Part shown: positions 1,417 through 62,444 of the stretch, one piece after another
Position numbering within the stretch: the first letter of the stretch is position 1
Layout of the letters: every line of letters begins with the position of its first letter
IMG/VR virus record: IMGVR_UViG_3300009709_000002
Coordinates: 296,228 to 360,227 of that record
Length of the DNA: 64,000 bases
Strand: one strand, 5' to 3'
Source of the DNA: a virus
Lineage: Duplodnaviria; Heunggongvirae; Uroviricota; Caudoviricetes
Program-made: the position numbers and the translations under genes
Notes under the pieces: model-generated
Seen by the model: only the letters and a program-made list of their open reading frames with translations
Told to the model about the DNA's origin: nothing
The model's database searches: none

Positions 1417-2024
1417 AACTTTGCGAATTCCTCAAAGCCTTCGTCTATAAGTCTAGATTGTGCTTCAACCATGTCTGATTTTTCTTTAAGCAGCTCATTC
1501 AAAAGCGTGTTAAGCTTTGACCCCCAAGCTTGTTCAACTGAAACATTGCGCAAATCACATTTGAGTAATCGAAGTAGACCTGGCTTCTTGATGTGCTCGC
1601 TTGGTCCGCTAATTCTGAACGTAATCGAATCTAGCATATTCAACTTCTCAATTCCCTTCAGTGACTCAATTTGGCAGGTGTGAAAATCTAGATGATTAAC
1701 ATTTGGCACCGTTGAAAAATCATCAAATGACATTAGTTCCATCTCAACACATCCACCAGCTGGTAAGTTCCAGCTGTCACTTGGAAAATCTACATTCCAT
1801 GGTGAAAAATCAGTATCGCCATGTTTTGGTCCTATACAGATGCCATTCCAATTTTTAGTAAGGCAAATTTTACCAGACTTGAATAGCACACCGCTTTTCT
1901 CATTGAATTCTTGCTTACTGTTGCCACCATTATTAGAGTAGTACGTTACTGTAGAATGTGTGTCTTTGAACTTTTTGAACTGTTCAGCAGTAATGCTTTC
2001 AATCAAGAATTGTTTGAATTTCAT
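1413..2024 (-). CDS. Family-A paralog
   Basis: C-term AQSRLIDEGFEEFAKL; N-term MKFKQFL. Confidence 0.8.
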   Translation of the reverse strand: MKFKQFLIESITAEQFKKFKDTHSTVTYYSNNGGNSKQEFNEKSGVLFKSGKICLTKNWNGICIGPKHGDTDFSPWNVDFPSDSWNLPAGGCVEMELMSFDDFSTVPNVNHLDFHTCQIESLKGIEKLNMLDSITFRISGPSEHIKKPGLLRLLKCDLRNVSVEQAWGSKLNTLLNELLKEKSDMVEAQSRLIDEGFEEFAKL

Positions 2025-2599
2025 TGCTTGGCAAATTCCTCTAGGCCAGCATCAATCAGCGCATTCTGACATTCAATGACATCACGGTTACCATCACGAT
2101 AGCGCATTACGATGTGCAGAGCTTTTTCGAGCTTTTCATCATCAAGCTTATGCGCCCACAGTTCTTTGCCGTGATACTTCAGAAGTTGAAGCACGCCACA
2201 ATCAAACTTCACGGCACCGATGAACTCTAGAAGCTGGATGGAATTTACTTCATTGATGCCTTTGAGCGACTTGACACGTGCACCTTCAAAGTTCAAACGT
2301 TGAACTTTTGGAAAGTGGTCAAATCCGTCTAAGATTACGTCGGGGCGTAGAGTGAGCGTGAACTCACCTAGTGGTTTGGTAGAGTGCAGAGGCCAGTAGA
2401 AATTCTTTGGGCTCTTTGCTTCTAGCTTGAGTGATGCGATCGTGTCTAGCAGCTCGCCATCTTTATCGGCCATCAGGCTCGATTTATCTACATCAACGTC
2501 AGTGTAGTCGTGCTTCATACCAGCAGTCACCGTGAAATCGGAAAGCCACTTCTTGATGTCTTTAGTAATTCCGCCGTCAAACAGTTCATTCAGTCTCAT
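2021..2599 (-). CDS. Family-A paralog
   Basis: C-term CQNALIDAGLEEFAKQ. Confidence 0.8.
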   Translation of the reverse strand: MRLNELFDGGITKDIKKWLSDFTVTAGMKHDYTDVDVDKSSLMADKDGELLDTIASLKLEAKSPKNFYWPLHSTKPLGEFTLTLRPDVILDGFDHFPKVQRLNFEGARVKSLKGINEVNSIQLLEFIGAVKFDCGVLQLLKYHGKELWAHKLDDEKLEKALHIVMRYRDGNRDVIECQNALIDAGLEEFAKQ

Positions 2600-2642
2600 G
2601 GAATACTCCCAGATGATTATGGGAGTATTTATGAGTTAGATT

Positions 2643-3218
2643 TTACAGCTTTGCGTATTCCTCATATCCTTCATCGATCAGCTTAGATTGAAAATCGACA
2701 ACATCTTGCTTGTCTTCCATGGCATTTCGTATGAGCTGTTCTAGCTCATGAAGGCTTGCATTTGTAAAGCGTACCTGCTTAAGCTTCTCACACTTCAACA
2801 GCCTGAGAACTCCGCATCGAAAATCACTACGCGCCATGCTAAATCGTATGTCTTCGAGATCTAGCTTTTCAATGCCTTTCAGTGACGTGACCACAGTGTT
2901 TCGGGTCAAGTGAATTTCCTTGGCATTGATCATCGACTCGAAGGTGCTAACCGTGAGAATGCGAGCAGATGTTCCACCGTTGCCTAGCTCAAGGTTATCT
3001 ATCACGTATGGAATGTGAAACGGCCAGTCAAACGCCTCACTGCTTCTTGGCATAATCCCAAGTTCGTGGTATTCTTTAGATGAAAGAAGACCGTTGATAG
3101 CCTCGACGCTTGATGCTCCGCCGGTTTTCTGATTGAAAGCACTTACGTGATATTTTTCTGCGTACTCTTCTTCAGCAGAAGTTACGATCTCATTTAAGAG
3201 GAAGTCTTTGAATTTCAT
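2643..3218 (-). CDS. Family-A paralog
   Basis: C-term FQSKLIDEGYEEYAKL. Confidence 0.8.
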   Translation of the reverse strand: MKFKDFLLNEIVTSAEEEYAEKYHVSAFNQKTGGASSVEAINGLLSSKEYHELGIMPRSSEAFDWPFHIPYVIDNLELGNGGTSARILTVSTFESMINAKEIHLTRNTVVTSLKGIEKLDLEDIRFSMARSDFRCGVLRLLKCEKLKQVRFTNASLHELEQLIRNAMEDKQDVVDFQSKLIDEGYEEYAKL

Positions 3219-3811
3219 AGCGTAGCGTACTCGTCGAGGTCGGCTTCAATCAGTTCATTCTGGCAATCCAAGGCGTTTGATTCACCAAGGTGGCTTCGTA
3301 CAATTGTCAGAACTTTGTGCAGCTTTGGGTTATCCAACTTGATGATAGGTGCCATCTTAAGGTGGTCTAATGATTGACACTTCAGCAGCCGCAAAACGCC
3401 GCACTTAATGTCAGACGACTTAGCAAAAACGAGTGCATTTAACGTTGAGAGCTTCTCAATTCCCTTGAATGACGTAATAGTGGTGTGAAGAAATCGAATT
3501 TCAATAGCTGTTGGCACTTTCTCAAAACCATCAATGATGTTAGAATTTGCATAGTACGCTGCATTGTGGTCAAAGTTGAAAGTCCTTAATCCCTTACCCC
3601 ACCAGCTAGCATCCATTGGCGGATCGAATGTTTGATTTGTGCGATCACTACCAAGGGTAATTTCTTTGTTGTGAAAGTCAAAAGCACCGATTGTATTGAG
3701 AAATTGAAAATCTTGAGACCTTACACTAGTTCCGCCAGATATTTTGTACTTCTTCATCCAATCTTCAAGCGCATTCTTGTTGACATCTTCTAAAAGATCA
3801 CTCAGCTTCAT
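3215..3811 (-). CDS. Family-A paralog
   Basis: C-term CQNELIEADLDEYATL. Confidence 0.8.
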   Translation of the reverse strand: MKLSDLLEDVNKNALEDWMKKYKISGGTSVRSQDFQFLNTIGAFDFHNKEITLGSDRTNQTFDPPMDASWWGKGLRTFNFDHNAAYYANSNIIDGFEKVPTAIEIRFLHTTITSFKGIEKLSTLNALVFAKSSDIKCGVLRLLKCQSLDHLKMAPIIKLDNPKLHKVLTIVRSHLGESNALDCQNELIEADLDEYATL

Positions 3812-4419
3812 AGCTTAGCCCATTCATCAAATCCAGCATCAATGAGAGCTGATTGGCACTCGATAATGTCTGGTTCAGGTTTGCTTTGTTCTTTTACTAC
3901 GATGCTAAGTGCATCTTGTAGTCTGTCATGATTGCCGCTATCAAATTCAATTTCACCGCGGAACTTAAGAAGGCTAAGCAATCCACATTCTACCTTCAGA
4001 TCATACCCGCCACCGTCCATTAGCTCAAGAATTTTAATCTTATCACGCTTCTCAATTCCCTTGAACGTCTTGATGACGACGCCACCTAGATTGAGCTTTG
4101 GCACATTTGGAATTACTGACCAATCATCAAGAATGAAGCCAGGCTTCGTAATGTCAAGCACGAAGAAATGCTTGAAATTTTGCTTTGCAAACGGCCAGAA
4201 GAATTTGTGCTGAACTGAGATGCTTTCAAGATACAAGATCTTGATGTCTGATCGCAGCGTGCCATCTTCGGCCATCAGCTGTTCTACTCTTTGTGCACTA
4301 ACGGGTGAAATGGTCGTAGCACCAAGCCGTCTAAACTTGACGACATAATCACGCATGAATTTTTCAATTCTAGCTTCCATCTCATCACGGTGGATGATGT
4401 GAATTTCATTTAGCTTCAT
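3808..4419 (-). CDS. Family-A paralog
   Basis: C-term CQSALIDAGFDEWAKL. Confidence 0.8.
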   Translation of the reverse strand: MKLNEIHIIHRDEMEARIEKFMRDYVVKFRRLGATTISPVSAQRVEQLMAEDGTLRSDIKILYLESISVQHKFFWPFAKQNFKHFFVLDITKPGFILDDWSVIPNVPKLNLGGVVIKTFKGIEKRDKIKILELMDGGGYDLKVECGLLSLLKFRGEIEFDSGNHDRLQDALSIVVKEQSKPEPDIIECQSALIDAGFDEWAKL

Positions 4420-5021
4420 AGCTTGGCATACTCCTCAAATCCAGCATCAATTAGGTCATCTTGACACTTGATGAGATCTTTATGTTCAAGATGCTTCATT
4501 ACAATTTTCAGAGCTTTTACCAAATTTTTATCTTGCCCAGAAGATTGTTCATTACCGATTTGGAGTGTCTTAAGGTTTGGTATCTTTAAAAGTCTAAGCA
4601 ATCCACTATCTGTGTGCTTGATATGTACGATCATGCTGGTCATCGAAGTGAGTTTTTCTATTCCTGCAAATGAATCTACAACTCCACCTATCGCATACCT
4701 AGAAGCGCCATTCGGAAAGTCATTGAAATTCTTGAACACAAATTGATCTAACGGTCCCCAGATATCACCAGCCGCAAAAGTTCGAATATCATGCAAGTAG
4801 CCAAATGGCCAATAGAATGTTTGAAATCGCAGCTTTGGCATTATTTGAAAAGTTGCAATATCAGGCATGAACTTCCCATCTGGATCAACGAGCGATGTTC
4901 TGCGAGAAATCGACTTCTTAAGATTGCCACCTAGAGTGCATGATACTTTGAATTTGCCAAAGTAGTCTTTTGACAAAGCTACAGCTTGAGCATCTTCTGT
5001 TAGTAGTTCTTTGAGCTTCAT
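4416..5021 (-). CDS. Family-A paralog
   Basis: C-term CQDDLIDAGFEEYAKL. Confidence 0.8.
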   Translation of the reverse strand: MKLKELLTEDAQAVALSKDYFGKFKVSCTLGGNLKKSISRRTSLVDPDGKFMPDIATFQIMPKLRFQTFYWPFGYLHDIRTFAAGDIWGPLDQFVFKNFNDFPNGASRYAIGGVVDSFAGIEKLTSMTSMIVHIKHTDSGLLRLLKIPNLKTLQIGNEQSSGQDKNLVKALKIVMKHLEHKDLIKCQDDLIDAGFEEYAKL

Positions 5022-5719
5022 AGCTTTGCGTACTCCTCAAATCCAGCATCTATTAACGCAGATTGAAGATCGACGATACTGTGACCAGCTTTGAAGCTGT
5101 CATCGATGACCTGGCACAACTTTTCATACTTTACCGATTCGTCATCGTCAAATGAATCTATACTGACGATGTCTAATTTTGGACATTTAGCGAATCTAAG
5201 AACACCACAACTGAGACTCACTCTATGAGATGCGCCGAGCGAAAATCCGCTTAGCGATTTTAACTTCTCGATTCCAGCTAAAGATTTAACTATCAAGTTG
5301 TTTGCATACTGGATTGTGATCATATTCGCGTCTGGGAATGTTTCTAACCCATCAAGCACGTGATCAGTTTTTAAAGTGATGCCTAGCAGTTTTTGTGGTG
5401 CTGGAAACATAGATGGAAATTCTATTTTCTTTCCAGGTAAGAACGTCACGGCCACATTTTCAGGATGCACGTACATCTGTTTCAGATTGCCGTGTTCATC
5501 TATCAGTGAGTGAATCGTCGGTGTCAGCTCGCCAGTTTCGTTATTCAGCCATCCACTTTCATGGTTTGGCTTAGACAAGAACGTCTCTTTATCTTCCGCG
5601 TGATAGTAGATATTATCGCTTGTTCCAGTGATCTTGAAGATGTAACAGTTGTCTACGATCCAGCTTTCAAGCTCATCAGCTTTACTTGTAGATTCTGTTA
5701 GTAGTTCTTTGAGCTTCAT
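5018..5719 (-). CDS. Family-A paralog
   Basis: C-term LQSALIDAGFEEYAKL. Confidence 0.8.
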   Translation of the reverse strand: MKLKELLTESTSKADELESWIVDNCYIFKITGTSDNIYYHAEDKETFLSKPNHESGWLNNETGELTPTIHSLIDEHGNLKQMYVHPENVAVTFLPGKKIEFPSMFPAPQKLLGITLKTDHVLDGLETFPDANMITIQYANNLIVKSLAGIEKLKSLSGFSLGASHRVSLSCGVLRFAKCPKLDIVSIDSFDDDESVKYEKLCQVIDDSFKAGHSIVDLQSALIDAGFEEYAKL

Positions 5720-6372
5720 AGGTGTGCAAAAGGCTCCATCCAGTCATACGAATCAAGCATTTCATTTTGGCAGGCGAGTACGTCTCTATCACCCTTGAGA
5801 TGCTTGTTGATGATCTTTGCTACTTCGTTATTCCACGGTAGAGTGACTTGCTTCAAGCGTGGACATTTCAGCAGACGAAGAACACCCATGCCTTTACGAG
5901 CCTTACCGTCTGGGCCAGGTCCTGCGTAGTACATGTAGAGCGTCTCAAGCTTATTGAGCTTTTCAATGCCTTTAAATGAATCGAACATGTAGTGATCTAG
6001 GCGAAGATCTTTGACGTTTGGTAGCTTCCCAAAATCATCGATCATATAGCCGCTTAGCACGACGTGCTCAACCTTTGATGAATAGCCTTTGACAGGGCAG
6101 TCATCAAATTTGGCTTTACTTCTGGTGCTCATGCTTAGGGAGTCATAACCCTTCTTTACTAGCAGCACACCGTCATAAACGTAGTAGCCATTTGGGTCAC
6201 TATGAACTTTACCGGTGTGGTTATCTTTCGGGTTCATAAGGCTTTGAGACACTGTTTTCGGTTTAGGCACCTGATGACCGTGCAAGAACGCAACCGTTCT
6301 ATTTTCTTTAAGCCATGCTTCAACAGCTTTATCTTCACTTGCTTCTTCTTTGAGTAACTCAATAACTTTCAT
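5716..6372 (-). CDS. Family-A paralog (start moved to internal Met MKVIELL; ATGA overlap at 6369-6372)
   Basis: ORF 5716..6420 overlaps upstream gene; the internal ATG restores the coupled-start pattern seen across the array. Confidence 0.7.
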   Translation of the reverse strand: MKVIELLKEEASEDKAVEAWLKENRTVAFLHGHQVPKPKTVSQSLMNPKDNHTGKVHSDPNGYYVYDGVLLVKKGYDSLSMSTRSKAKFDDCPVKGYSSKVEHVVLSGYMIDDFGKLPNVKDLRLDHYMFDSFKGIEKLNKLETLYMYYAGPGPDGKARKGMGVLRLLKCPRLKQVTLPWNNEVAKIINKHLKGDRDVLACQNEMLDSYDWMEPFAHL

Positions 6373-6962
6373 AGCTTCGCCCATTCTTCTAAGCCAGCAT
6401 CGATCAAATCTGTTTGACAATCGATGATGTCATGTTTTTCACAAAATTCATTCAGCGCACTAGTTAACTTCTGCCCTACGTCCATGTCATCGACAATGTC
6501 TGTTAGATCGATGTCTTCAATCTTCGACTTTACAAATGGAAGAACTCCAATCGGCTCTTGGTTTACTTTGAAGTCTTTGTTAATGACACAGAATGATGTA
6601 GATGATAAGTTCTCAGCGCCCTTAAAGCTCTTGAACGTGCACCCAAAGAATATTAGAGCGTGCTTCACGTTTGGGACTTGCTTCAAGCTTTCAAATTGCA
6701 AGTTGCTAAAGTCGATGCGATCAAATCCTTCTATCTCGCATGGAAAGCCATCAAAATCTTTCTTGTTATCTACGTTGTATGAGCCGACATCCATTCGCAC
6801 AATATTCGATGCGGCGGGTTTTAGCTTTCCACCTTCATAGATAATGTTTGCTCTGTCTGGAGATGAAGTAGCAGAGCTTATCCCAGTCACATTATACTTC
6901 TCAAGGAAGTCCGAAACGCTTTTCGGCATCTCGTCTTCCTTGAGAATTTCTTTTAGCTTCAT
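6369..6962 (-). CDS. Family-A paralog
   Basis: C-term CQTDLIDAGLEEWAKL. Confidence 0.8.
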   Translation of the reverse strand: MKLKEILKEDEMPKSVSDFLEKYNVTGISSATSSPDRANIIYEGGKLKPAASNIVRMDVGSYNVDNKKDFDGFPCEIEGFDRIDFSNLQFESLKQVPNVKHALIFFGCTFKSFKGAENLSSTSFCVINKDFKVNQEPIGVLPFVKSKIEDIDLTDIVDDMDVGQKLTSALNEFCEKHDIIDCQTDLIDAGLEEWAKL

Positions 6963-6999
6963 TTAGAAACTCCAATGTTTAGATGGAGTATTTATGAGC

Positions 7000-7653
7000 T
7001 TACAACTTCGCGTATTCGTCAAAACCTTTTTCAATCAGCTCATCCTGGCACTCAAGCATATTGTTTTCTTTGCCAATGTACTTCTTCACGATCTTGAAAG
7101 CTTCAATCCCCTTCATGTGCGCGTCGGTACCACGGCTACCGCCAGGTCCAAACTGCATCTCGAATTCACCTAGCTTGAGCAATGATAGCAGACCACAATC
7201 AAACGTGGTGCTATTTGAGAAATAGACGTACTCAGGTTTTATCGCAACTAGCTGCTTCAGAGATTTTACCGTGTACGGATGAAAGTATATGTCTTCATAG
7301 TGCAGCTTAGGAAGAACACTTTCATCCGTGAAGACTCCGCCATTCACGTTAATCGCGATAGGATCTTTCAGTTGAGGAAAATAGAATCGAAATTCATCAG
7401 CAGAGATAGGGCAGGCTGACAACGTAGATGAACCATTCTTTACTACGAAGTCAATACCAAAATATTGATAGTTAAGCTTGATCGGCTTACCAATCTGGAA
7501 TGATTTTTCAAGAACTCGCTTTGGATTAGGCAGATTTTTACCATTGCCAATGCGAATTCGAACGTGATCAAACCACCAGGCAATTTGTTCTTCAGAAAGA
7601 GCCATGGTGGAATCATCTTCCTCAGCTTCAAACAGAATTTCTTGTAACTTCAT
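7000..7653 (-). CDS. Family-A paralog
   Basis: C-term CQDELIEKGFDEYAKL. Confidence 0.8.
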   Translation of the reverse strand: MKLQEILFEAEEDDSTMALSEEQIAWWFDHVRIRIGNGKNLPNPKRVLEKSFQIGKPIKLNYQYFGIDFVVKNGSSTLSACPISADEFRFYFPQLKDPIAINVNGGVFTDESVLPKLHYEDIYFHPYTVKSLKQLVAIKPEYVYFSNSTTFDCGLLSLLKLGEFEMQFGPGGSRGTDAHMKGIEAFKIVKKYIGKENNMLECQDELIEKGFDEYAKL

Positions 7654-7693
7654 TAACTAACTCCAATTAAGATGGAGTATTTATGAGCTTACA

Positions 7694-8416
7694 TTACAAC
7701 TTCGCGAAATCCTCAAATCCAGCGTCGATCAGCTCGGTCTGCAGGTCAACCTTACTACGTTCTAGCACAGGCAGCTTCAAGTGCTTGTTGATGATATCAG
7801 CCATCTCATTATGCCGACCAATTCCATCTTCTTTCGAAAAGCTACTGAAAAACATCACCTCTTCCAGAATTGGTGACTTCAACAATTGAAGCACGCCCGG
7901 CTTATGCTCATTCTGATTGCAGTTATACAATCTCAACCTACGAACGTACGTCTTCTCGATCCCTTCAAAGGAGCGCACGTTGCAGTCCACCAGCGTTATG
8001 CCTTGGATGCGCTGGTTGAGCTGATCTAGAGTGGAGAACTTGTACTGGCACAGCGTCATCCACGGTGCTCCCCAGTTAATGTTTCTTGGAACTTCAAATT
8101 CCGTTCCTAAGTTCTTGGCGGTGATCTTGATCTCACTGCTCATGTGGTCGAACTGACGATTCGCCTGCATTCGCCACCAATCGACGAACTCTTTGGCCGG
8201 ATCGCTTTGGTGATTCCGAACTTCTACAGTATTCTTCATGGCGAACTCTCGCCATTGACGTTGGAACTCTAGCTCTTTTTCTTTCTCGTCCAGGAGCATC
8301 ATATCGTTCTTTCCTATGCTACCGCGAAGCGGCGGAAATTTTTCTAAGCACCTAAGAATGATTCTATCACCTTTCATGGTAGAAGTAAAGGATGCTTCAA
8401 CCTTTTCTCGCTTCAA
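7694..8416 (-). CDS. Family-A paralog
   Basis: C-term LQTELIDAGFEDFAKL. Confidence 0.8.
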   Translation of the reverse strand: MKREKVEASFTSTMKGDRIILRCLEKFPPLRGSIGKNDMMLLDEKEKELEFQRQWREFAMKNTVEVRNHQSDPAKEFVDWWRMQANRQFDHMSSEIKITAKNLGTEFEVPRNINWGAPWMTLCQYKFSTLDQLNQRIQGITLVDCNVRSFEGIEKTYVRRLRLYNCNQNEHKPGVLQLLKSPILEEVMFFSSFSKEDGIGRHNEMADIINKHLKLPVLERSKVDLQTELIDAGFEDFAKL

Positions 8417-8979
8417 AGTTCAGCATACTCATCGAGACCAGCATCGAGCATGGCAGATTGGCACGCGACGATGTCACGATCTTTCAAGTGCTTCCTAACG
8501 ATGCCTAACGCAAGCTCCAACCGCGTAGCATGAACGTTGGCGAAGATGATAGCTTCTAGGCGTGGCAGCTTCAGCAATCTCAGCAGGCCGCAATTGAAAT
8601 GGGCTCCATAGTTCAACCCAACAATATACAGCAGCTCTAGATTCTTTAAGCGATCAACGCCTTTTAGCGTTTCCACCTGCAGCCCATGAAGGCTGAGACT
8701 CTTCACCAAGGTAGGAAAGCCTTCCCAATCATTTAAGACAAGAAGCTTCGCCGGTCTGGCCATGATGTCGAGATGGCGTAGGTAAGCCTCACCGAAGGGC
8801 CAGTAGAAGGGATCTTCATTGTTCAGCTTAGGAGACACGATCAAATTATTGATGTGCATGCGAACGTTGTTCTTACTATCAAAGATCGCATCATACCGCT
8901 CGGGTGTTACCGTCGCTTTACCAGGCTCTTGGAGCTCATATTTGTCCAGCCAGTCTAATCCTTCGAGAGCTGTGGTCAT
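8413..8979 (-). CDS. Family-A paralog (GC-richer)
   Basis: C-term CQSAMLDAGLDEYAEL. Confidence 0.8.
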   Translation of the reverse strand: MTTALEGLDWLDKYELQEPGKATVTPERYDAIFDSKNNVRMHINNLIVSPKLNNEDPFYWPFGEAYLRHLDIMARPAKLLVLNDWEGFPTLVKSLSLHGLQVETLKGVDRLKNLELLYIVGLNYGAHFNCGLLRLLKLPRLEAIIFANVHATRLELALGIVRKHLKDRDIVACQSAMLDAGLDEYAEL

Positions 8980-9590
8980 AGCTTGGCATACTCCTCATAA
9001 CCCTTCTCGATGAGCTCCGACTGGCAGGCGATGATATCCCGCTCAGCACCATCTTCAGTCAGGTACGTTTCCACGATCCACAAGACGTCTTTTAGCCGAC
9101 GCTCTACGTTGACGGATCCACAGTTGATCCGGGTCAATTTCGGACACTTCAAGAGCCGAAGCAGCCCGCACGTTATGATTGTTCCATGCTGGTGCCCTTC
9201 AACGTAGAGCGAATGCATGTTTTCTAGCCTCTCCACGTTCTTGAACGTTTCGACGTGTAGCCCAGACAGATGGACGTAACGTACCGACGTTGGCAGCTCA
9301 TCCCAGCTCTTCAGCGCCAAACGCTGGTTAGTATTCTGCATGATGTTGAGAGACACTATATCCGCTTCACCGAACGGCCAGTAGAATCCACGAGGATTTC
9401 CGTAGAACTTGTTCGCCGTAATGTTCAGTTCACAGAAACCGTCGCGCAGCGTCTTCGTCGCATTGTCGAAGAGCTGATCAGCTCTAACCACAGTAATACC
9501 GGTGTCGATGTTGGTCGCCGCAACACCAAAATCAGACATGTACCGAACGATCGACATGTCAGTATCATTGTAGACTCCCGCCGCGCTCAT
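8976..9590 (-). CDS. Family-A paralog
   Basis: C-term CQSELIEKGYEEYAKL. Confidence 0.8.
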   Translation of the reverse strand: MSAAGVYNDTDMSIVRYMSDFGVAATNIDTGITVVRADQLFDNATKTLRDGFCELNITANKFYGNPRGFYWPFGEADIVSLNIMQNTNQRLALKSWDELPTSVRYVHLSGLHVETFKNVERLENMHSLYVEGHQHGTIITCGLLRLLKCPKLTRINCGSVNVERRLKDVLWIVETYLTEDGAERDIIACQSELIEKGYEEYAKL

Positions 9591-9599
9591 AGTAGCTCC

Positions 9600-10229
9600 T
9601 CACAGTTTCGCATATTCTTCTAAGCCTGAGTCGATCAGCTCCGACTGGCAGGCGACGATGTCCTTCAGCTCTAAATGCTTCTTCACGATAGATAAAGCAT
9701 CATGCTGTCTCTTATGCTCACCATCATAAGAAACTCCGATCATCCTCAGCTTAGGTAGCTTCAGCAACCGCAGCACTCCAAGCTCTTCCAACTGGAAAGG
9801 CCGACGCACCGCTCCGTTCAGAATCAGCTCCTCCAAGTTCTGCAACCGTTCAATTCCTTTGAGAGACGACACGATAGTTCCATGAAAGACCAGGCGGTGC
9901 AGGCTCTCAGGAAAATCACTCCACCCCTCCACACGAAACTGCCTAGGAATCATGCCGGTCTTAATGATAAACGAGATCAAGCCAACCGACATCACCTCCA
10001 GCTTCGCGCCGCCGAACGGCCACTCGAACCTTATAGGTTCATCTCCGTCTAGCTTCTGACAAATGTTCACCTTCACGACGTCATCCAACAGCCGAGCGCT
10101 CTTCACGTCAAAGATGTTCAGCAATGACTTCATCAGCTCGCCATTCTTCAGCACCGCGTTGACTTCATAGTCTCTTAGGTAGTCGGCCAGTACGAAAGGA
10201 TGGTTCATAAGCTCTCTTGTCACTTCCAT
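9600..10229 (-). CDS. Family-A paralog (first gene of the array)
   Basis: C-term CQSELIDSGLEEYAKL; followed upstream by a 700-bp noncoding region. Confidence 0.8.
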   Translation of the reverse strand: MEVTRELMNHPFVLADYLRDYEVNAVLKNGELMKSLLNIFDVKSARLLDDVVKVNICQKLDGDEPIRFEWPFGGAKLEVMSVGLISFIIKTGMIPRQFRVEGWSDFPESLHRLVFHGTIVSSLKGIERLQNLEELILNGAVRRPFQLEELGVLRLLKLPKLRMIGVSYDGEHKRQHDALSIVKKHLELKDIVACQSELIDSGLEEYAKL

Positions 10230-49443: not shown

Positions 49444-50076
49444 TCAGTGCTTTCTGGTATAGACAAGCAGTACGAACTTCTTCAGCTTGTCCTCTTCAGC
49501 CCAGATCTCATCATCTGGGAGATTCTTGCCATCATAGTAGAACGGCTCATCACCGTCCATCTTCAGGTGGCCATGATCCAAGATCATGACTACCTCGTTA
49601 CTCGCGTGGCTACGAGCAATCTTCTTCCATAGCTCAGCACCGCCCTTGAACTGCTTGGTGTCTGAGATGATGGTGTATCCTTTGCTCACCAGTGAATGGT
49701 AGAGGAACGTTCCAAGACCTGCAAACTTGGTCTGCTTAGCGACCTGCACGAGATCAACTTGAAGAACGTTCGGCGAAAACTCACGACGTTCTTCGGTACC
49801 AAGCTGTAAGCTCAGCTTAAACAGCAGCTGGCCAATAACCTGCACACCATCTTCGCCATCATGGCGCTGACCACGAGTGCCGATAATAGCGGTGTCGTGA
49901 TCATCATCTAGGTAAACTTCAACGTTATCTTGCTTGCCCATCAACCTGTACTTGCGTTCTTCAAGCGCCTTGTTGGTCATGAAGTAGACGCTGAACGGCT
50001 CCGCATCTGGATCATCATCCATCTCACGGTTAGAGAGCATCGGCATTTCTGTAAGTAGTAGTTCATCTAGTCTCAT
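49444..50076 (-). CDS. hypothetical protein
   Basis: ORF track. Confidence 0.5.
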   Translation of the reverse strand: MRLDELLLTEMPMLSNREMDDDPDAEPFSVYFMTNKALEERKYRLMGKQDNVEVYLDDDHDTAIIGTRGQRHDGEDGVQVIGQLLFKLSLQLGTEERREFSPNVLQVDLVQVAKQTKFAGLGTFLYHSLVSKGYTIISDTKQFKGGAELWKKIARSHASNEVVMILDHGHLKMDGDEPFYYDGKNLPDDEIWAEEDKLKKFVLLVYTRKH

Positions 50077-50159
50077 CGGTACCTCCTAATGAGAACTATT
50101 TATTGGTTGGCAAAAGACCATCTTACTGTCATTGTATACCAACTCTACTACGTTGTACA

Positions 50160-50792
50160 TCAAAGAATTGCAAACTCATCAAGGTTTGCGTCAATCAGTT
50201 CATTCTGGCATTCAAGAATATCTCTGTCATCTTCATACACATACTTCTTTACTATTCTAAGCGCAACAAATTGATCTTCTTTTGAACCATTATCACATAC
50301 AATGAATTTCAGTTTTGGCGCTTTTAGTAAACTCAACAATCCACATTCTATCTTTATGTCATTAGAAAAATTTAATTGCTGAATTTTAGAAGATGGCTCC
50401 AATTTTAGTGATTTAATTTTGGCTCTCTTAAATTCTATTTGCAAGAAATCAATATTTAAATTACAAAGTAATTTAGCATCATCTATGATACAATTTTCAT
50501 ATCTAATGCCATTACCATGCTCTTCTAAAATATTAAGCCATACGTCATCTGGTACTGGACATTTTGTGATTGCTTTATCTTTGAAATTGAAAAATATTTT
50601 CCAGTATGAAAATTTATCATTATTTTTAGAATTATATGCTTTTACCAGCAAATCATATACTTCATCACCATCAAACTTTTTAAAGTTCATATGTGACTGA
50701 TCAACTGACAATATAACGTGATCTTTAAACCATTGTTTAGTCGATGGAGAATTCCACGCTATTTTTGATTTTGAAATTTCATGTAGTTTCAT
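50160..50792 (-). CDS. Family-A paralog (AT-rich copy)
   Basis: C-term CQNELIDANLDEFAIL. Confidence 0.75.
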   Translation of the reverse strand: MKLHEISKSKIAWNSPSTKQWFKDHVILSVDQSHMNFKKFDGDEVYDLLVKAYNSKNNDKFSYWKIFFNFKDKAITKCPVPDDVWLNILEEHGNGIRYENCIIDDAKLLCNLNIDFLQIEFKRAKIKSLKLEPSSKIQQLNFSNDIKIECGLLSLLKAPKLKFIVCDNGSKEDQFVALRIVKKYVYEDDRDILECQNELIDANLDEFAIL

Positions 50793-51400
50793 AGCTTTGC
50801 GTACTCATCAAGATTTGCATCAATCAGTTCATTCTGGCATTCAAGAATATCTCGGTCGTCTTTCAACAAGTGCTTGTTGATGATTTGAAGCGCTAATTGC
50901 AAGTCTTTCGGGCATGAAGCTGTGCCACCTACTCGGCCAATCGTTTTGCACTTCAAAATACCAAGCAATCCACACTTAACTTTCGGAAAATCTAGTGTTA
51001 GATTATCAATGCCTCCATCTAGCGAACCAAGCTTAAATGTATGAAACTCGCATCGATCCAAGATAAGCAGCTGAGCTATCGGCATTTTATCCCACGTGTC
51101 AATAACTGCACCGATTATGCGCAAACTTTCAAGCCGATTGTTACCTTGCGGCCAAGCTTTAGAATCAAATGGAATTGAGCTGATAGTTTCTTGGTGCATT
51201 ACCAGACAAGCTTTATTGATGTTCTCAATCTCTACCTTGCCATTTTCATATTTGAAAGTTACTCCACGCTCTTTCTCATACGAGATGTCATTACCATCTA
51301 CTTTCTCAGCGGTGCGTGAATCAAGGCCCCAATGCAAGGCGTGCTTTACCCACTCATCACCTACGTTATCTGATTCTTGCAGATATTGTTTGAATTTCAT
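50789..51400 (-). CDS. Family-A paralog
   Basis: C-term CQNELIDANLDEYAKL. Confidence 0.8.
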   Translation of the reverse strand: MKFKQYLQESDNVGDEWVKHALHWGLDSRTAEKVDGNDISYEKERGVTFKYENGKVEIENINKACLVMHQETISSIPFDSKAWPQGNNRLESLRIIGAVIDTWDKMPIAQLLILDRCEFHTFKLGSLDGGIDNLTLDFPKVKCGLLGILKCKTIGRVGGTASCPKDLQLALQIINKHLLKDDRDILECQNELIDANLDEYAKL

Positions 51401-52023
51401 ACCTTAGCCCACTTTTCAAACCCAGCGTCAATTAAATCTGATTGACATTCAATAATGTCTTTGCCTTCTTTGAGGTGTTTATTGACAATCTCAAATGCTT
51501 TCTCTACGTCATTATCAGCTTCATTAAAGCCATGAACGGTCTTGATGTTTTCTGTCTTCATTAGATTAAGAAGACCACACTTGATCTTTACATCTTCAAA
51601 ATTTAGAGAGTTCGTATTGACTGACGGTGGAAACTTAACAGACTCAACCACAGCACCGTTCAAATAAAGCCTAAGAAGTTTTGCTGGTGTGAAAAGCTTC
51701 TTAGGATCTTTCAAAATCCCATTGAAAACTGTTTGATGCTTGACTTGATCGCCAAACACAGCTGTCCAAAGATCTACTGAGAAATCCGGTGGCATTGAAT
51801 ATTCTTCATCCGTTTCATGATAGAATTCCAGAAAGAGCTTACACGGTCCAGAGTTTTCAGGCACGCCTTTATTTAGCGCAGTGCAAATAGCTTCACCAGT
51901 ATAAAGCGGCGTTGATCCATCATTAAATGAGCCAACGTTCACGATAATTGCATGCTTCATGAACCAATCTTCGGCTTTTGGTGATAATGCCCGTTTTGGT
52001 TTTGTTATCTCTGTTAGTTTCAT
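51397..52023 (-). CDS. Family-A paralog
   Basis: C-term CQSDLIDAGFEKWAKV. Confidence 0.8.
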   Translation of the reverse strand: MKLTEITKPKRALSPKAEDWFMKHAIIVNVGSFNDGSTPLYTGEAICTALNKGVPENSGPCKLFLEFYHETDEEYSMPPDFSVDLWTAVFGDQVKHQTVFNGILKDPKKLFTPAKLLRLYLNGAVVESVKFPPSVNTNSLNFEDVKIKCGLLNLMKTENIKTVHGFNEADNDVEKAFEIVNKHLKEGKDIIECQSDLIDAGFEKWAKV

Positions 52024-53052: not shown

Positions 53053-53128
53053 TGGCTCCCCAGGCTGGGCTCGAACCAACGACCATTGCATTAACAGTGC
53101 AACGCTCTACCAACTGAGCTACTGGGGA
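53053..53128 (-). tRNA. tRNA-Asn (GUU)
   Basis: Perfect acceptor tccccag/ctgggga plus gCCA; loop ctGTTaa. Confidence 0.8.
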
Positions 53129-55346: not shown

Positions 55347-55420
55347 TGGTGGGTCTGCCTGGAATTGAACCAGGAATCTCCGGCGGCAATCGCGCAGTGT
55401 GTTGCTTACACTACAGACCC
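55347..55420 (-). tRNA. tRNA, anticodon unresolved (atypical loop cgATTgc)
   Basis: Perfect acceptor gggtctg/cagaccc plus aCCA; T-arm cctgg-ttcaatt-ccagg. Confidence 0.5.
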
Positions 55421-55663: not shown

Positions 55664-55882
55664 TTAGTGAACTAACATCACCTGAACGACTGGTGTTTCT
55701 GAACCATCATTCTCTGTCCAGAAACGAATAGCGAAGCAATCTACTGCGTAAGCTTCACCACCGTCGATCGCTTCAACGAGTAGCTCTTTCTTCTGATCAA
55801 ACTGTTGAAGATGTTTGATAGCTTCTTCAACCGTCATTTTCTTCACCTTGTTGCTCACGAAGAATATCCATTGCGAAATCAT
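55664..55882 (-). CDS. hypothetical small protein
   Basis: ORF track. Confidence 0.4.
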   Translation of the reverse strand: MISQWIFFVSNKVKKMTVEEAIKHLQQFDQKKELLVEAIDGGEAYAVDCFAIRFWTENDGSETPVVQVMLVH

Positions 55883-56066
55883 AACCTGACCAGTTATCTA
55901 CACCAGCACATTCAAGCGCAGTGAGCTTTGCTGAATCTTCACAAAGACTGTTATACTCTTTCTTTGTGATAGTTACCATCTCTTCAGTTGGTGCAACCAT
56001 GTTGTTGTCCTCAGTTTGAATCAGTAAGAGGATTCTAAATCATTTCAACAACATCGTAAATTTATT

Positions 56067-56140
56067 TGGTAGTCCGTTACGGAATCGAACCGTCTTCATT
56101 CGCTAATCGGGCGAAGACCTTACCAATAGATGACCGGACC
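56067..56140 (-). tRNA. tRNA-Ile (GAU)-like
   Basis: Stem ttcgc/gcgaa; loop ccGATta; CCA. Confidence 0.5.
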
Positions 56141-56225
56141 ATTGTAGTACTAGAGTTAAAGTCGAAAAGAGAAATTTTACGTGCTCGGCCATTGAGCTAC
56201 AGCGCCATTAAATCAACTACAAGTT

Positions 56226-56300
56226 TGGCGACGCTGGCTGGGATTCGAACCCTGCATCCACGCGATTCGGAGTCGGAGTAACTCTTCTCTACGCAACTAA
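56226..56300 (-). ncRNA. tRNA 3'-half-like fragment (T-arm plus acceptor plus CCA, no 5' half found)
   Basis: cagggttcgaatccc...gtcgCCA with no complementary 5' acceptor. Confidence 0.3.
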
Positions 56301-56303
56301 TAC

Positions 56304-56378
56304 TGGCGCCGCGGAGGGGGAATGATCCCCTACTTCATCCGTGACAGGGATGCATGCAGACCACTACATCACCGCGGC
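56304..56378 (-). tRNA. tRNA-Asp (GUC)
   Basis: Perfect acceptor gccgcgg/ccgcggc plus gCCA; stem catcc/ggatg; loop ctGTCac. Confidence 0.75.
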
Positions 56379-56388
56379 AAAATAATTC

Positions 56389-56465
56389 TGGTCCCTGCGC
56401 TTGGACTCGAACCAAGGACCTATGCGTTATCAACACATTGCTCTAACCAGCTGAGCTACGCAGGG
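56389..56465 (-). tRNA. tRNA-Ile (GAU)
   Basis: Canonical D-arm tagctcagctggttagagc; loop ttGATaa; aCCA. Confidence 0.8.
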
Positions 56466-56744
56466 ATTTTATGAAGCACTCATACAATTCCGTCGTGTCA
56501 TCAGGGTGCGCTTCAAGTTACACCAATATGAATGAGATGATGAGTCCCTAACTGTTAACCAAGTCGACGTTGCATAATACTCATCGGAAATATGCAGGCC
56601 CATAGGCTCTGTTACAGCCCAGCCGAAGCCGGTAAAACTAGTAAGTTTCTGCTCCACGACCTGGGAACGATCCAGGCTAATCGTGATTAACAGTCACGCG
56701 GTTGCCACCAAGGCGCCTCTCGTGGAGCAGAAACTTCTAATCTT

Positions 56745-56819
56745 TGGTACCCGCAGTTGGTATCGAGCCAACCTCTGAGCCTTATCAAGACTCTGCTAAT
56801 CCGTCTCAGCTATACGGGC
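56745..56819 (-). tRNA. tRNA, loop ttGATaa (Ile-GAU-like), atypical D-arm
   Basis: T-arm gttgg-ctcgata-ccaac; aCCA. Confidence 0.5.
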
Positions 56820-56830
56820 ATTGTACTAAT

Positions 56831-56908
56831 TGGCTCCGGTTCAGGGAATCGAACCCCGCTCTATGCGCATTAACAGTGCGCCGCTTACACCTTGCTTGCT
56901 CAACCGGA
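56831..56908 (-). tRNA. tRNA-Asn (GUU)-like, atypical D-arm
   Basis: Perfect acceptor tccggtt/aaccgga plus gCCA; stem gcgca/tgcgc; loop ctGTTaa. Confidence 0.55.
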
Positions 56909-56975
56909 ATCGGTCGCCGAGAATTTTATACTTGATAGCTCGGCAGTCAAGTCGTGGCAGCTTCTACCACTGTTT

Positions 56976-57047
56976 TGGACCCACCGGACAGAGTCGAACT
57001 GTCTACATCTCGTTCGTAGCGAGTTGGCCTAATCCCTAGGCGGTGAG
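56976..57047 (-). tRNA. tRNA-Arg (ACG)
   Basis: Loop ctACGaa; T-arm gacag-ttcgact-ctgtc; tCCA. Confidence 0.6.
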
Positions 57048-57052
57048 ATACT

Positions 57053-57130
57053 TGGTGGGTGCGCTGGGATTCGAACCCAGGTCAGCCGGATTAAGAGTCC
57101 GGTATAATAAAGCCGCTATACGACACACCC
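57053..57130 (-). tRNA. tRNA-Lys (CUU)
   Basis: Stem ccgga/tccgg; loop ctCTTaa; aCCA. Confidence 0.6.
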
Positions 57131-57141
57131 AAAATAAAACT

Positions 57142-57215
57142 TGGTGGGACTGGAGGGTACTGGCCCCTCTTCTACGAGGTAAAAGCTCGTTGCTTCACTT
57201 TAAAGCTTCAATCCC
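57142..57215 (-). tRNA. tRNA-Lys (UUU), unusual T-loop
   Basis: D-arm gctt-taaagtg-aagc; stem acgag/ctcgt; loop ctTTTac; aCCA. Confidence 0.6.
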
Positions 57216-57226
57216 ATTCTACATCT

Positions 57227-57302
57227 TGGCGGGGGTGCTAGGTTTCGAACCTAATCCTAGTGAGTCAGAGTCACTCATGCAAACCAATTACACCTCACCC
57301 CT
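57227..57302 (-). tRNA. tRNA-Gln (CUG)
   Basis: Stem agtga/tcact; loop ctCTGac; gCCA. Confidence 0.55.
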
Positions 57303-57313
57303 ACTGTACTTCT

Positions 57314-57388
57314 TGGTAGTCCTCCAGGGAATCGAACCCTGTCACCTGCGGTCAAAGCGCAGTATCTGCTCCAATCGATTTGAGGACA
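57314..57388 (-). tRNA. tRNA-Gln (UUG)
   Basis: Stem ctgcg/cgcag; loop ctTTGac; T-arm caggg-ttcgatt-ccctg. Confidence 0.6.
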
Positions 57389-57390
57389 GG

Positions 57391-57462
57391 TGCCGCCGAT
57401 TGGTAACGATCCAACCTCTTGGGTGTTTCAAACCCACGCTAATCCATCTCAGCTACCGCGGC
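57391..57462 (-). tRNA. tRNA-Phe (GAA)-like; no encoded CCA; unusual T-loop
   Basis: Acceptor gccgcgg/cggcggc; stem tgggt/accca; loop ttGAAac. Confidence 0.5.
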
Positions 57463-57474
57463 ATCTATAAATCT

Positions 57475-57551
57475 TGGGGTGAATGAGGGGAATCGAACCC
57501 CCACCGAGATGTTCACAGCATCCCATGCAGAACCACTACACTACATCCACC
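57475..57551 (-). tRNA. tRNA-His (GUG) with encoded G-1
   Basis: Loop ctGTGaa; extra 5' G before acceptor gtggatg/cattcac; cCCA. Confidence 0.65.
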
Positions 57552-57586
57552 ATTGAAGTAGAGCCCGAAGACTCTACCTTGAAACT

Positions 57587-57901
57587 TTACACCTTGTCTG
57601 GATACTTTTCATCCAGCCAGTCGATATAAGCTAGAGGGCTCATACCTGGCTCACAGTTGTGAATCTTTGTGAAGCCATTTTCCTTTGTGATCAACGATTC
57701 AGTTCCTGGAACTGCACCGCGATATTTCTGTCCGTACTGGCCTTCAATTTGACCAGTTGCTGGATTTAAATCTCCCCAGAAAGCCTTCTTACCTGCGAGA
57801 GGTTCTACGAAATAAGTCTTACCAGTGCGCTGCGATACAACGATAAAGCGGCCGGTTTCATCTGTATTTGTGAGAAACCTTGCCCGTAGGTCGGGGTCCA
57901 T
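57587..57901 (-). CDS. hypothetical protein
   Basis: ORF track. Confidence 0.45.
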   Translation of the reverse strand: MDPDLRARFLTNTDETGRFIVVSQRTGKTYFVEPLAGKKAFWGDLNPATGQIEGQYGQKYRGAVPGTESLITKENGFTKIHNCEPGMSPLAYIDWLDEKYPDKV

Positions 57902-61262: not shown

Positions 61263-62444
61263 TTAACCGTCGTCACGAAGCAAGAATGCTTCCATCGCAC
61301 GTTGGCACGCCGAAATTCTTGCAGCTTGCAAGAGAATACCAACATGAGGTCCTTGCTCACCAGGAGCTACTACATCAGCTGTTATCAGAGCCGCGATTTT
61401 TGCCGAATACAACACCAAATCTGATGTCATTTCAGGAACTTCGCCAAGCAATTCATACAGCAAGAGCGGATTCAGGTTAGTGAACCAGACCGGAGTGCGC
61501 CAGACGCCGATGAACTTCAACGTCTTGTGAAGACCGACAGCAGTCATGCCGTTCGCCAGCTCGTCACCGATGCTGATGAGCATGTTCGCATCATTGATCG
61601 CGCTGCTCTGCATCTTGATGTCGGCGAAATCAGCATTGCGATTGAACGCCGAGATCACCGCAAGCATACACGAAACAAACTCGGACTCCGACAGCTCATC
61701 TTCATGATCTTCGATAAGCTGAATCGAGTCGAAGATCATAGCAATCCGCGAGTATTTCATGTCACCAAGCCACTTCTTGAAGAAGCTCACGGTCCGCACG
61801 GCGTCGACCAAGAACAGCGTGTGGAAGAAATTCATCGGGTGCGGTTCAATGAACGCACGGGTGATTTCTTTCCAGTAGCGCTCGTGAGAAACTTCATCGA
61901 GCTCACCAGATTTGATGACTTCCTTGCAAAGCTCGATCGTGTCTGGTGCGATCGTGAAGTCGAATCTGGCAGCGAAACGTGCAAGCCGCAAGACACGCAG
62001 CGGATCTTCCGAGAAAGCTTCCGATGTGTGTCGCAAAATGCCGCTATGGAGATCATCTTCACCACCGAACGGGTCGATCAGTGTGGTCAAACCTTTGTTG
62101 GGAGCTGGGATGATCGTTCCATCTTGCTTCACGACGGAAACTTCATACGCCATCGCGTTGATAGTCAAGTCGCGGCGGCGCAGATCATCTTCAATCGTCA
62201 CGCTCGAGTCAAAAGCCGTCTCGAAGCCGTGATAGCCGACGCCGACCTTGCGTTCAACACGAGCCAACGCCCATTCATCGCCAGTTGTAGGGTGAAGGAA
62301 CACTGGGAAATCTGCACCAACCTGCTTGAAGCCGAAGCTCACCATTTCTTCAGGTGTCGAGCCGACAACGACATAGTCGACGTCTTTCGGCTTGCGGGAC
62401 AACAGCATGTCCCGCACAGCTCCACCAACAACATATACTTTCAT
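61263..62444 (-). CDS. cca: tRNA nucleotidyltransferase (CCA-adding enzyme), class II
   Basis: GGAVRDMLL...DVDYVV head motif and RRRDLTINA motif B. Confidence 0.8.
   Translation of the reverse strand: MKVYVVGGAVRDMLLSRKPKDVDYVVVGSTPEEMVSFGFKQVGADFPVFLHPTTGDEWALARVERKVGVGYHGFETAFDSSVTIEDDLRRRDLTINAMAYEVSVVKQDGTIIPAPNKGLTTLIDPFGGEDDLHSGILRHTSEAFSEDPLRVLRLARFAARFDFTIAPDTIELCKEVIKSGELDEVSHERYWKEITRAFIEPHPMNFFHTLFLVDAVRTVSFFKKWLGDMKYSRIAMIFDSIQLIEDHEDELSESEFVSCMLAVISAFNRNADFADIKMQSSAINDANMLISIGDELANGMTAVGLHKTLKFIGVWRTPVWFTNLNPLLLYELLGEVPEMTSDLVLYSAKIAALITADVVAPGEQGPHVGILLQAARISACQRAMEAFLLRDDG

Follow-up and report, generated by a model that had tools for sequence, protein, structure and literature searches.

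Results

A tRNA-Asn gene enclosed by pairing flanks in a phage tRNA cluster

The 64,000-nucleotide stretch analysed here (the window) spans positions 296,228 to 360,227 of the caudoviricete record IMGVR_UViG_3300009709_000002 in IMG/VR and carries a tRNA cluster; all 30 tRNAs of the window lie on the minus strand. Within this cluster, the interval 56466–56744 had been described in an original prediction, made by reading the sequence, as 280 bp of noncoding DNA between two tRNAs. The interval contains a tRNA-Asn(GTT) gene, which ARAGORN places at 56651..56726 on the minus strand and whose leader and trailer pair with each other beyond the acceptor stem (Table 1). The element is almost certainly a tRNA-Asn-type gene carrying a leader–trailer stalk at the RNA level.

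Both landmarks of that description were recovered and acquire a different meaning. The 12-bp arms of its inverted repeat lie at the positions reported, tctgctccacga at 56648–56659 and tcgtggagcaga at 56720–56731, but they are separated by 60 nt rather than about 70, and the repeat, though real, had been cut short: it is perfect over 17 bp (56643–56659 / 56720–56736). Past one bulged A it gains 8 further pairs on the minus-strand RNA, giving about 25 bp in total. Each 12-mer consists of the 7-bp acceptor stem and five flanking pairs, and the hairpin cctggg-aacga-tccagg, found at 56660–56676 as described, is the T arm. The small regulatory RNA that had been suggested is thus the acceptor stem of a minus-strand tRNA-Asn(GUU), its leader–trailer extension and its T arm. 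The other suggestion, a processing element, suits the stalk, for which such a role is plausible, but not the rest of the interval. Dinucleotide shuffling of the interval (1000 shuffles) gave perfect inverted repeats of at most 11 bp at 40–110 nt spacing, never 12 bp, and the observed one has 17 bp.

Minimum free energy (MFE) folding of the element produced a cloverleaf on the stalk with the tRNA arms in cloverleaf order. An Rfam scan of the interval, at gathering as well as permissive thresholds, returned only snoRNA-like noise. For the rest of the interval (56466–56642), folding was no better than that of shuffled sequence (z = +0.81) and no Rfam match was obtained at E ≤ 10; a 62-aa open reading frame (ORF) at 56469–56657 had no PHROG match.

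Table 1. Parts of the stalked tRNA-Asn gene and associated features of the window
Feature	Position	Strand	Basis
tRNA-Asn(GUU) body (nt 1–72, 74 nt long) and discriminator G73	56652..56726	-	ARAGORN, covariance model R1
Acceptor stem, 5' strand UCCACGA	56720..56726	-	sequence, ARAGORN
Acceptor stem, 3' strand UCGUGGA	56653..56659	-	sequence, ARAGORN
D arm GGCGCC-UUGGU-GGCAACC; D-loop GG kept, 3 nt over the lineage consensus length	56700..56717	-	R1 alignment, MFE fold
Anticodon arm CGUGA-CUGUUAA-UCACG; anticodon GUU at 56689–56691	56682..56698	-	sequence, ARAGORN, R1
T arm CCUGG-AUCGUUC-CCAGG (hairpin of the original prediction); A54...U58 T-loop variant	56660..56676	-	ARAGORN
Stalk, 5' leader arm AAGAUUAGAAGUUUCUGC, 18 nt; fills the entire spacer after the CCA of the upstream tRNA-Ile	56727..56744	-	fold, pairing scan
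Stalk, 3' trailer arm GCAGAAACUU-A-CUAGUUUU, 19 nt; G73-C-A in place of an encoded GCCA, bulged A at 56642	56634..56652	-	
Small UUCG-tetraloop hairpin CCGGC-UUCG-GCUGG directly 3' of the stalk, no U-tract after it	56619..56632	-	fold
Remainder of the interval: spacer without supported RNA structure, RNA family or protein family	56466..56618	.	Rfam, folding, PHROG
Upstream neighbour tRNA-Ile(GAU), encoded CCA	56745..56819	-	ARAGORN, Rfam
tRNA nucleotidyltransferase (CCA-adding enzyme family), candidate CCA supplier	61263..62444	-	Pfam PF01743 (E = 3.6e-18), PF12627; phrog_2244 'tRNA nucleotidyltransferase' (E = 2.2e-93)

The tRNA body belongs to a phage lineage that the Rfam tRNA model does not detect

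The ARAGORN cloverleaf of the element has a perfect acceptor stem, G73, a D stem interrupted by an internal loop, and no encoded CCA. The anticodon loop, CUGUUAA, is 7 nt long with U33 present and a purine at position 37. Asparaginyl-tRNA synthetase (AsnRS) of E. coli recognizes an identity set of G34, U35, U36 and G73, and all four nucleotides are present in the element. The canonical T loop (T54-Psi55-C56-R57-A58) and U8 are absent; the loop reads AUCGUUC, with A54 and U58, and position 8 is a G.

The Rfam tRNA model RF00005 (gathering threshold 29 bits) did not match the element even at E ≤ 10. The same model also misses GCCA-ended members of the lineage to which the element belongs (IMG/VR loci L217, L252, L229 and L235), so that the miss is not a sign of decay; annotation based on Infernal would overlook the genes of this lineage, since RF00005 gives no match even at so permissive a threshold. 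The lineage emerged from an unbiased pattern scan of viral contigs. It is widespread and mostly GCCA-ended, and is marked by G8-A9, a compact D arm and usually a small variable hairpin; the element has both the G8-A9 and the compact D arm. A 5-bp/5-nt D arm and a GNRA-capped variable hairpin were seen in loci L217–L243 (for example L217 4666–4742) and in the window gene at 56834–56908. The covariance model R1, built from 16 distinct members of the lineage with the window sequence excluded, scored the element at 49.0 bits (E about 2e-11) over model positions 1–80 of 80, with every modelled pair standard. This was the top match in the window, on par with the unstalked, CCA-ended neighbour at 56834–56908 (48.7 bits). 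That neighbour and a gene at 53056–53128 are two further tRNA-Asn(GUU) genes of the window.

BLAST searches against cultured phages found related tRNA-Asn bodies in RsoM2USA, ESCO13, KIL2 and CcrBL9, all ending in GCCA and none stalked. RsoM2USA, a Ralstonia jumbo phage (MG752970), encodes a canonical tRNA-Asn with an identical acceptor stem, G73 and CCA, adjoining a tRNA-Ile(GAU) in the same order as in the window. Both the ordinary lineage members (window 56834–56908, L217–L243) and the RsoM2USA gene resemble the element in the acceptor stem UCCACG-, G73 and the CUGUUAA loop. G8-A9 and the compact D arm are further points of agreement for the lineage members; for RsoM2USA it is the position next to tRNA-Ile(GAU). 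Both kinds of gene differ from the element in encoding GCCA, in mostly having U(-1) and in showing only background pairing between leader and trailer. ESCO13 (L210 1474–1559) and KIL2 (L211 1495–1580), of Phapecoctavirus and Flaumdravirus, have an 86-nt tRNA-Asn with a variable-arm hairpin, a class-II-like form unusual for tRNA-Asn.

The A54...U58 T loop, in which positions 54 and 58 are swapped (consensus ATCGT[T/A][A/C]), is found in 41 of 902 distinct phage tRNAs (4.5%). Its carriers represent many isoacceptors and are mostly CCA-ended, including the CCA-ended Asp and Phe genes of the window. Sites with this loop are 56304–56378, 57389–57462 and 56660–56676 in the window, and L001, L002, L004, L218, L225 and others. 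No paper on it was returned by a full-text literature search. As a trait linked to stalks the loop was discarded, its association with them being non-specific (p = 0.09).

The leader–trailer stalk is the strongest among the tRNAs scanned

The stalk continues the 7-bp acceptor stem with 10 perfect pairs starting at -1/73, followed by the bulge and 8 more pairs; the sequence after the tRNA body reads G73-C-A-G. Stacked on the acceptor stem and the T arm, the stalk would make a helix of about 30 bp. Pairing of leader with trailer was scored for every ARAGORN tRNA of the window and of all fetched loci. For nearly all of these tRNAs it extends only 0–2 bp beyond the acceptor stem. In a mismatch-tolerant energy score, the stalk of the element reached -26.9 kcal/mol, the strongest value among 975 tRNAs (mean -5.2, standard deviation 3.5). 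A stalked class was defined by a leader–trailer helix of at least 10 pairs that starts at -1/73 in register with the acceptor stem, and the element falls within it.

The leader arm fills the whole 18-nt spacer after the CCA of tRNA-Ile(GAU), which makes co-transcription with the neighbours the simplest arrangement; the element and tRNA-Ile(GAU) are probably co-transcribed. An independent assembly (L258), 94.5% identical to the window over 3.6 kb, contains an identical element. Across window positions 56400–57600, the two differ at 3 sites in a 1.2-kb block, one of them a substitution within 56466..56618. As the entire block is equally conserved, L258 cannot separate the element from the spacer; the comparison shows, at the level of sequence, that the 1.2-kb block around the element is maintained. 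An exact 25-mer of the element was absent from IMG/VR.

Stalks recur on other phage tRNAs and covary

About ten other stalked tRNAs, for Asn, His, Trp and Met, were found across unrelated phage contigs. Stalked tRNA-Asn genes with differing stalk sequences occur in L003, L194, L196 (and the near-identical L195), L249 and L231, and those of other identities are a tRNA-His in L249, a tRNA-Trp in L224 and a tRNA-Met in L219. Apart from L195 and L196, the stalk-bearing contigs share no nucleotide similarity outside their tRNAs. The bodies differ in quality: the stalked His and Asn tRNAs of L249 are canonical by RF00005 (64.6 and 60.5 bits), and the Trp (L224) and Met (L219) bodies fall under the Rfam tRNA threshold. 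The examined DNA of L003, L194, L196 and L224, whose tRNA sets number up to 25, contains no gene for the amino acid concerned besides the stalked one.

The stalk sequences changed in a concerted manner. When four Asn stalks were aligned on a common anchor, all 28 cells at pairs -4 to -10 were paired, and both sides change at 6 of these 7 positions. Over the Asn-stalk alignment 10 pairs change on both sides. None of 500 shuffles reached the observed covariation score, and sliding the register lowered pairing from 91% to 33–50%. The first 12 stalk positions of ten stalks comprise 103 Watson–Crick, 10 G.U and 2 A.C pairs; because G.U far outnumber A.C, the helix is selected in the tRNA-sense RNA and not in DNA. 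Lack of conservation or covariation in related genomes had been named as the outcome that would count against a structured RNA here, and the compensatory changes among related elements in other phage contigs are the opposite of that outcome. A conserved structured RNA is therefore present, though about 170 nt of the 280 bp once assigned to it have no supported structure.

No stalk was found on the tRNAs of T4, T5, RsoM2USA, ESCO13, KIL2 or CcrBL9, and stalked phage tRNAs did not turn up in literature searches. With the adjacent tRNA-Ile as anchor, the loci obtained (L002–L004) have only tRNAs in common with the window, and L003 carries a stalked Asn gene; anchoring on the gene for the CCA-adding enzyme gave one truncated locus. 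Among 51 loci anchored on a 104-aa ORF, no further strong stalk was detected besides the His variant of L164. The palindrome patterns CTCCACGA..TCGTGGAG and TGCTCCACG..CGTGGAGCA were abandoned as homologue finders, their matches being mostly chance occurrences in coding DNA and only L003 being real.

Three observations on individual loci accompany these results. In L249 2343–2628 (minus strand; IMGVR_UViG_3300045996_002337, 350 kb), stalked, CCA-less His, Asn and Asn genes stand in tandem with spacers made up almost completely of stalk arms; the cluster is otherwise ordinary and CCA-encoding, with a third, unstalked tRNA-Asn of 94 nt and more tRNAs downstream of the tandem. The contig of L003 also has a group I intron (RF00028, 57.3 bits) at 6214–6405 (minus strand) within its tRNA cluster. 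In Clostridia metagenome-assembled genomes (MAGs), chromosomal tRNA-Asn genes (L198, L200, L204, L206 and L190) have a weaker, distal leader–trailer helix (for example cgttgaagat / atcttc..) with GCCA unpaired, which varies among MAGs and may represent a less pronounced cellular form of this arrangement.

Most stalked tRNAs lack the encoded CCA and U(-1)

In eight stalk-bearing loci, an encoded CCA is absent from 9 of 10 stalked tRNAs and from 13 of 134 unstalked ones (Fisher p = 8e-8). Apart from the element, 26 of the 29 window tRNAs encode CCA. U(-1), the nucleotide preferred by bacterial RNase P, is likewise rare in the stalked class (2/11 versus 617/904 unstalked tRNAs; p = 0.001), where its usual replacement is a C paired to G73. 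Three variants are intermediate in form. L231, a close relative of L003, keeps GCCA within the stalk with a single mismatch at C75; the tRNA-His of L164 keeps CCA in an internal loop of the stalk; and the tRNA-Ala of L229 has its ACCA bulged out of the helix. With such CCA-retaining intermediates, the stalk seems to have come first and the loss of CCA after it.

The distal stalk contains a recurrent motif

Stalk pairs 8–13 tend towards a common sequence in a fixed register. The leader tends to (A/G)AGUGU at -13 to -8, often after UUAG, AUAG or AAAG, and the trailer to ACAUUU(U) at 80–85; G.U wobbles recur at two fixed positions, and the trailer ends in a U-run. The strict leader form AGAGT[G/A]T is present in 6 of 968 leaders; all six have leader–trailer pairing, and they represent five tRNA identities. 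Elsewhere in the contigs concerned, this form falls within coding sequence. As a double-stranded motif, AGAGU(G/A)U / A(C/U)A(C)UUUU (leader -14 to -8, trailer 80–86) occurs in L224, L219, L196, L231, L164 and L229. The window version, UUAGAAGU / ACUU-A-CUAGUUUU, is similar but contains a bulge and lies 1 nt nearer to the tRNA. The leader motif was rejected as a promoter: the other AGAGTGT sites of L219 lie inside paralogous coding sequences, the window leader abuts tRNA-Ile, and only L196 is promoter-like upstream.

Discussion

A possible maturation route for stalked pre-tRNAs

As a tRNA the element is ordinary; its stalked, CCA-less design was found neither in the cultured phages that were checked nor in the searchable literature. 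The explanation that we are inclined to prefer is that the element is a functional pre-tRNA with an rRNA-like processing stalk, which is cut endonucleolytically and then receives its CCA. By analogy with the leader–trailer processing helices of rRNA operons, the stalk would isolate the tRNA fold in a polycistronic transcript and block the usual exonucleolytic 3' trimming. Because a base-paired trailer is closed to 3' exonucleases, an endonucleolytic cut would be needed; the ends could be freed by RNase III cutting inside the stalk, by an RNase Z/BN-type cleavage 3' of G73, or by both, together with RNase P at +1. A CCA-adding enzyme, for instance the phage-encoded one 4.5 kb away, would then supply CCA to yield a chargeable tRNA-Asn. 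An encoded CCA inhibits bacterial RNase Z about 1500-fold, and CA and CU ends are trimmed by RNase BN/Z of E. coli (PMC7479834); these properties would explain why loss of CCA accompanies the stalk and why the phage enzyme would be useful.

The parallel with rRNA operons is close in several respects. Their leader–trailer helices are RNase III substrates (for example PMC10250234). In both cases the flanks of a stable RNA pair, a long helix encloses the RNA and its sequence is free to covary, and the stalk, like them, spans about two helical turns. The stalk differs in that it encloses a 74-nt tRNA, lies flush with the acceptor stem and has only 11–25 bp, and its cleavage by RNase III is putative.

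CCA-less tRNA precursors of T4 are matured by the host RNase BN/Z and CCA-adding enzyme (PMC7479834). They resemble the element in coming from phage genes with no CCA of their own, whose products need endonucleolytic or BN-type trimming at the 3' end before CCA is added, steps that are presumed for the element. T4 tRNAs have no leader–trailer helix (at most 6 of 12 flank positions pair), whereas in the element CCA loss is coupled to the stalk and the phage brings its own nucleotidyltransferase.

Several considerations weigh against a functional, processed pre-tRNA. With two other tRNA-Asn(GUU) genes in the window, the element is dispensable for decoding. Structure at the 3' side, and paired leaders, hinder RNase P (PMC2241853). 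Bacterial RNase P usually relies on features that are removed here by the pairing of leader with trailer, by a C(-1) paired to G73 and by the lack of RCCA, so that maturation need not be efficient. A gene for RNase III was not detected among the approximately 38 window ORFs scanned, with Pfam or PHROGs, and a generic processing stalk leaves the distal motif AGAGU(G/A)U / A(C/U)AUUUU unexplained. There is also no experimentally studied example, since none of the six cultured phages inspected has stalks.

A possible capped mimic or dedicated factor

The stalk could instead cap both ends for good, turning the RNA into a non-chargeable tRNA mimic that titrates, as decoy or sponge, a tRNA-binding or tRNA-cleaving host factor such as an anticodon nuclease or a modification enzyme. 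Such an RNA would keep an authentic tRNA-Asn anticodon arm and the L-shape without aminoacylation, by analogy with Y-RNA-like mimics and the stable tRNA-like RNAs of T4 and T5. The joint loss of encoded CCA and U(-1) agrees with this idea, as does a window stalk that is perfect in 17 of 17 pairs while two other tRNA-Asn(GUU) genes can decode; in the same vein, L249 combines two stalked Asn genes with an ordinary one, and the Trp and Met bodies of L224 and L219 score below the Rfam threshold. The conserved distal motif suggests a dedicated binding partner. That phage tRNAs are known to counter tRNA-targeting defences (PMC10264068, PMC11464382, PMC11555353) also favours a decoy.

Phage tRNA clusters do contain stable tRNA-like RNAs without known function (T4 rnaC/rnaD, T5 RNA1-3). 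T4 rnaC and rnaD and T5 RNA1, RNA2, RNA3, RNAIII and RNAIV are like the element in lying inside phage tRNA clusters and in having paired 5' and 3' ends and T-arm-like hairpins; they are unlike it in their length of 103–172 nt (apart from RNA3), in having no complete cloverleaf or anticodon arm, and in lacking sequence similarity. YrlA/Y RNAs (RF02553) also combine a tRNA-like module with a long stem of 5' and 3' ends and no free CCA end. In YrlA, however, the ends leave from the side of the anticodon stem and an anticodon loop is missing; the element has an intact anticodon arm and a stem that extends the acceptor. RF02553 gave no match at E ≤ 10 in 56440–56760, and neither Ro/Rsr (TROVE) nor RtcB was found among the same roughly 38 ORFs with Pfam or PHROGs.

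Permanent capping nevertheless appears unlikely. It fits poorly with stalked genes that are the only ones for their amino acid in the near-complete sets of L003, L194, L196 and L224, with the fully canonical stalked His and Asn tRNAs of L249, and with intermediates that keep CCA inside the stalk. A decoy directed at the anticodon would not need the AsnRS identity elements and perfect acceptor stem that the element has kept, and the phage possesses its own CCA-adding enzyme. We know of no anticodon nuclease specific for tRNA-Asn, which likewise speaks against a decoy.

A more speculative proposal, to which we give about the same low credence, is that stalked CCA-less tRNAs form a distinct phage RNA class in which the double-stranded motif 5'-AGAGUGU / 5'-ACAUUUU, with its fixed G.U wobbles 8–14 bp from the tRNA, is read by a dedicated factor. 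That factor might be a sequence-specific endonuclease of a new maturation pathway that bypasses the normal rules of RNase P and exonucleases, or a protein that holds the cap in place, so that the RNA serves as a non-chargeable decoy against host defences aimed at tRNAs.

Less likely readings: terminator, pseudogene or DNA palindrome

A terminator, attenuator, insulator or 3'-end protector, in which the stalk would close behind RNA polymerase like a terminator hairpin with the tRNA as a giant 'loop' and the paired ends would stabilise the transcript, is a less likely function still. The trailer arms mostly end in U3–U5 (window CUAGUUUU; L194 CUUUUU; L219 AUUUU; L224 AUUUU; L249 His AUUUUU) and face a purine-rich leader arm (AGAG), and in L196 a near-consensus sigma-70 promoter ends just before the leader arm, so that a self-contained unit would result. 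A scan for terminators, though, reported no site at the element, where the helix beside UUUU is AU/GU-rich and weak, the 'loop' is a 74-nt tRNA and only four U follow. The three stalked tRNAs of L249 stand in tandem in mid-cluster with further tRNAs downstream, no promoter lies upstream of the L194 or L003 stalks, and the window leader arm abuts tRNA-Ile.

It is even harder to regard the element as a decaying tRNA pseudogene whose flanking repeat is a functionless accident of duplication or recombination. The lack of an RF00005 match at E ≤ 10, the internal loop of the D arm, the non-canonical T loop, the missing CCA and the redundancy of the copy in the genome would all suit decay. The Rfam miss and the T-loop variant, however, are common to CCA-ended, widespread phage tRNAs, and R1 scores 49 bits with no broken pair. 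In unrelated contigs, and on tRNAs of other identities, stalks reappear with compensatory changes; a 12-bp repeat arose in 0 of 1000 shuffles, and the element is identical in L258 despite 5.5% overall divergence.

Least credible of all is a palindrome acting in DNA, as a cruciform or hairpin for recombination, replication or mobility of the tRNA cassette: a perfect 17-bp inverted repeat could extrude, and homing endonucleases are frequent in tRNA clusters (an HNH ORF in the window, segB in T4), but the non-Watson–Crick combinations (10 G.T, 2 A.C) are always oriented to pair in the tRNA-sense RNA, the G.U pairs keep to the same positions, each with its G in the leader and its U in the trailer, and the arms always begin at -1/73 in register with the acceptor stem.

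Implications for phage tRNA clusters

Annotations of phage tRNA clusters usually do no more than list the tRNAs, and an entire phage tRNA-Asn lineage escapes the Rfam tRNA model. The present analysis reveals a subset of phage tRNAs, small but recurrent (Asn, His, Trp and Met, with Ala in a CCA-retaining form), on a covarying leader–trailer helix. This subset gave up the encoded CCA and U(-1), features that host enzymes normally use to locate tRNA ends, and the stalks of unrelated contigs have a sequence motif in common. If stalked pre-tRNAs are indeed cut by endonucleases and completed by CCA addition, the stalks would be a bacterial-virus counterpart of rRNA processing stalks and would give a reason for large phages to carry CCA-adding enzymes. 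If the RNA instead stays capped, it would represent a new kind of viral tRNA mimic.

Additional features of the window

The tRNA cluster and its surroundings include several other unusual features, all on the minus strand. A tRNA missed by ARAGORN lies at 57145–57215 (Rfam 41.7 bits); its anticodon loop is CUUUUAC (UUU, Lys-like), its T loop is non-standard and its CCA is encoded. Two aberrant tRNA-like sequences were identified by relaxed ARAGORN, one at 56070–56140 as Ile(GAT) (Rfam 28.6 bits) and one of 69 nt at 56976–57044 as Arg(ACG). A 163-nt gap at 56141–56303 has a GGTTCGAATCCC T arm and a GCCA end, with no complete cloverleaf. The tRNA at 55347–55420 (Rfam 44 bits) has the anticodon ATT (Asn, A34), which is unusual in bacteria and phages.

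Three features are protein-coding. A 57-aa ORF at 55827–56000, inside the tRNA cluster, matches PHROG families (phrog_6234, E = 1.8e-15) whose annotation is host RecBCD nuclease inhibitor. At 49444–52023, four neighbouring ORFs, each about 205 aa long, share a C-terminal ...DILECQNELIDANLDE(F/Y)A.. motif, which points to a paralogous family. At the start of the window, 254–10229 is occupied by a run of about 17 similar-sized ORFs (190–240 aa).

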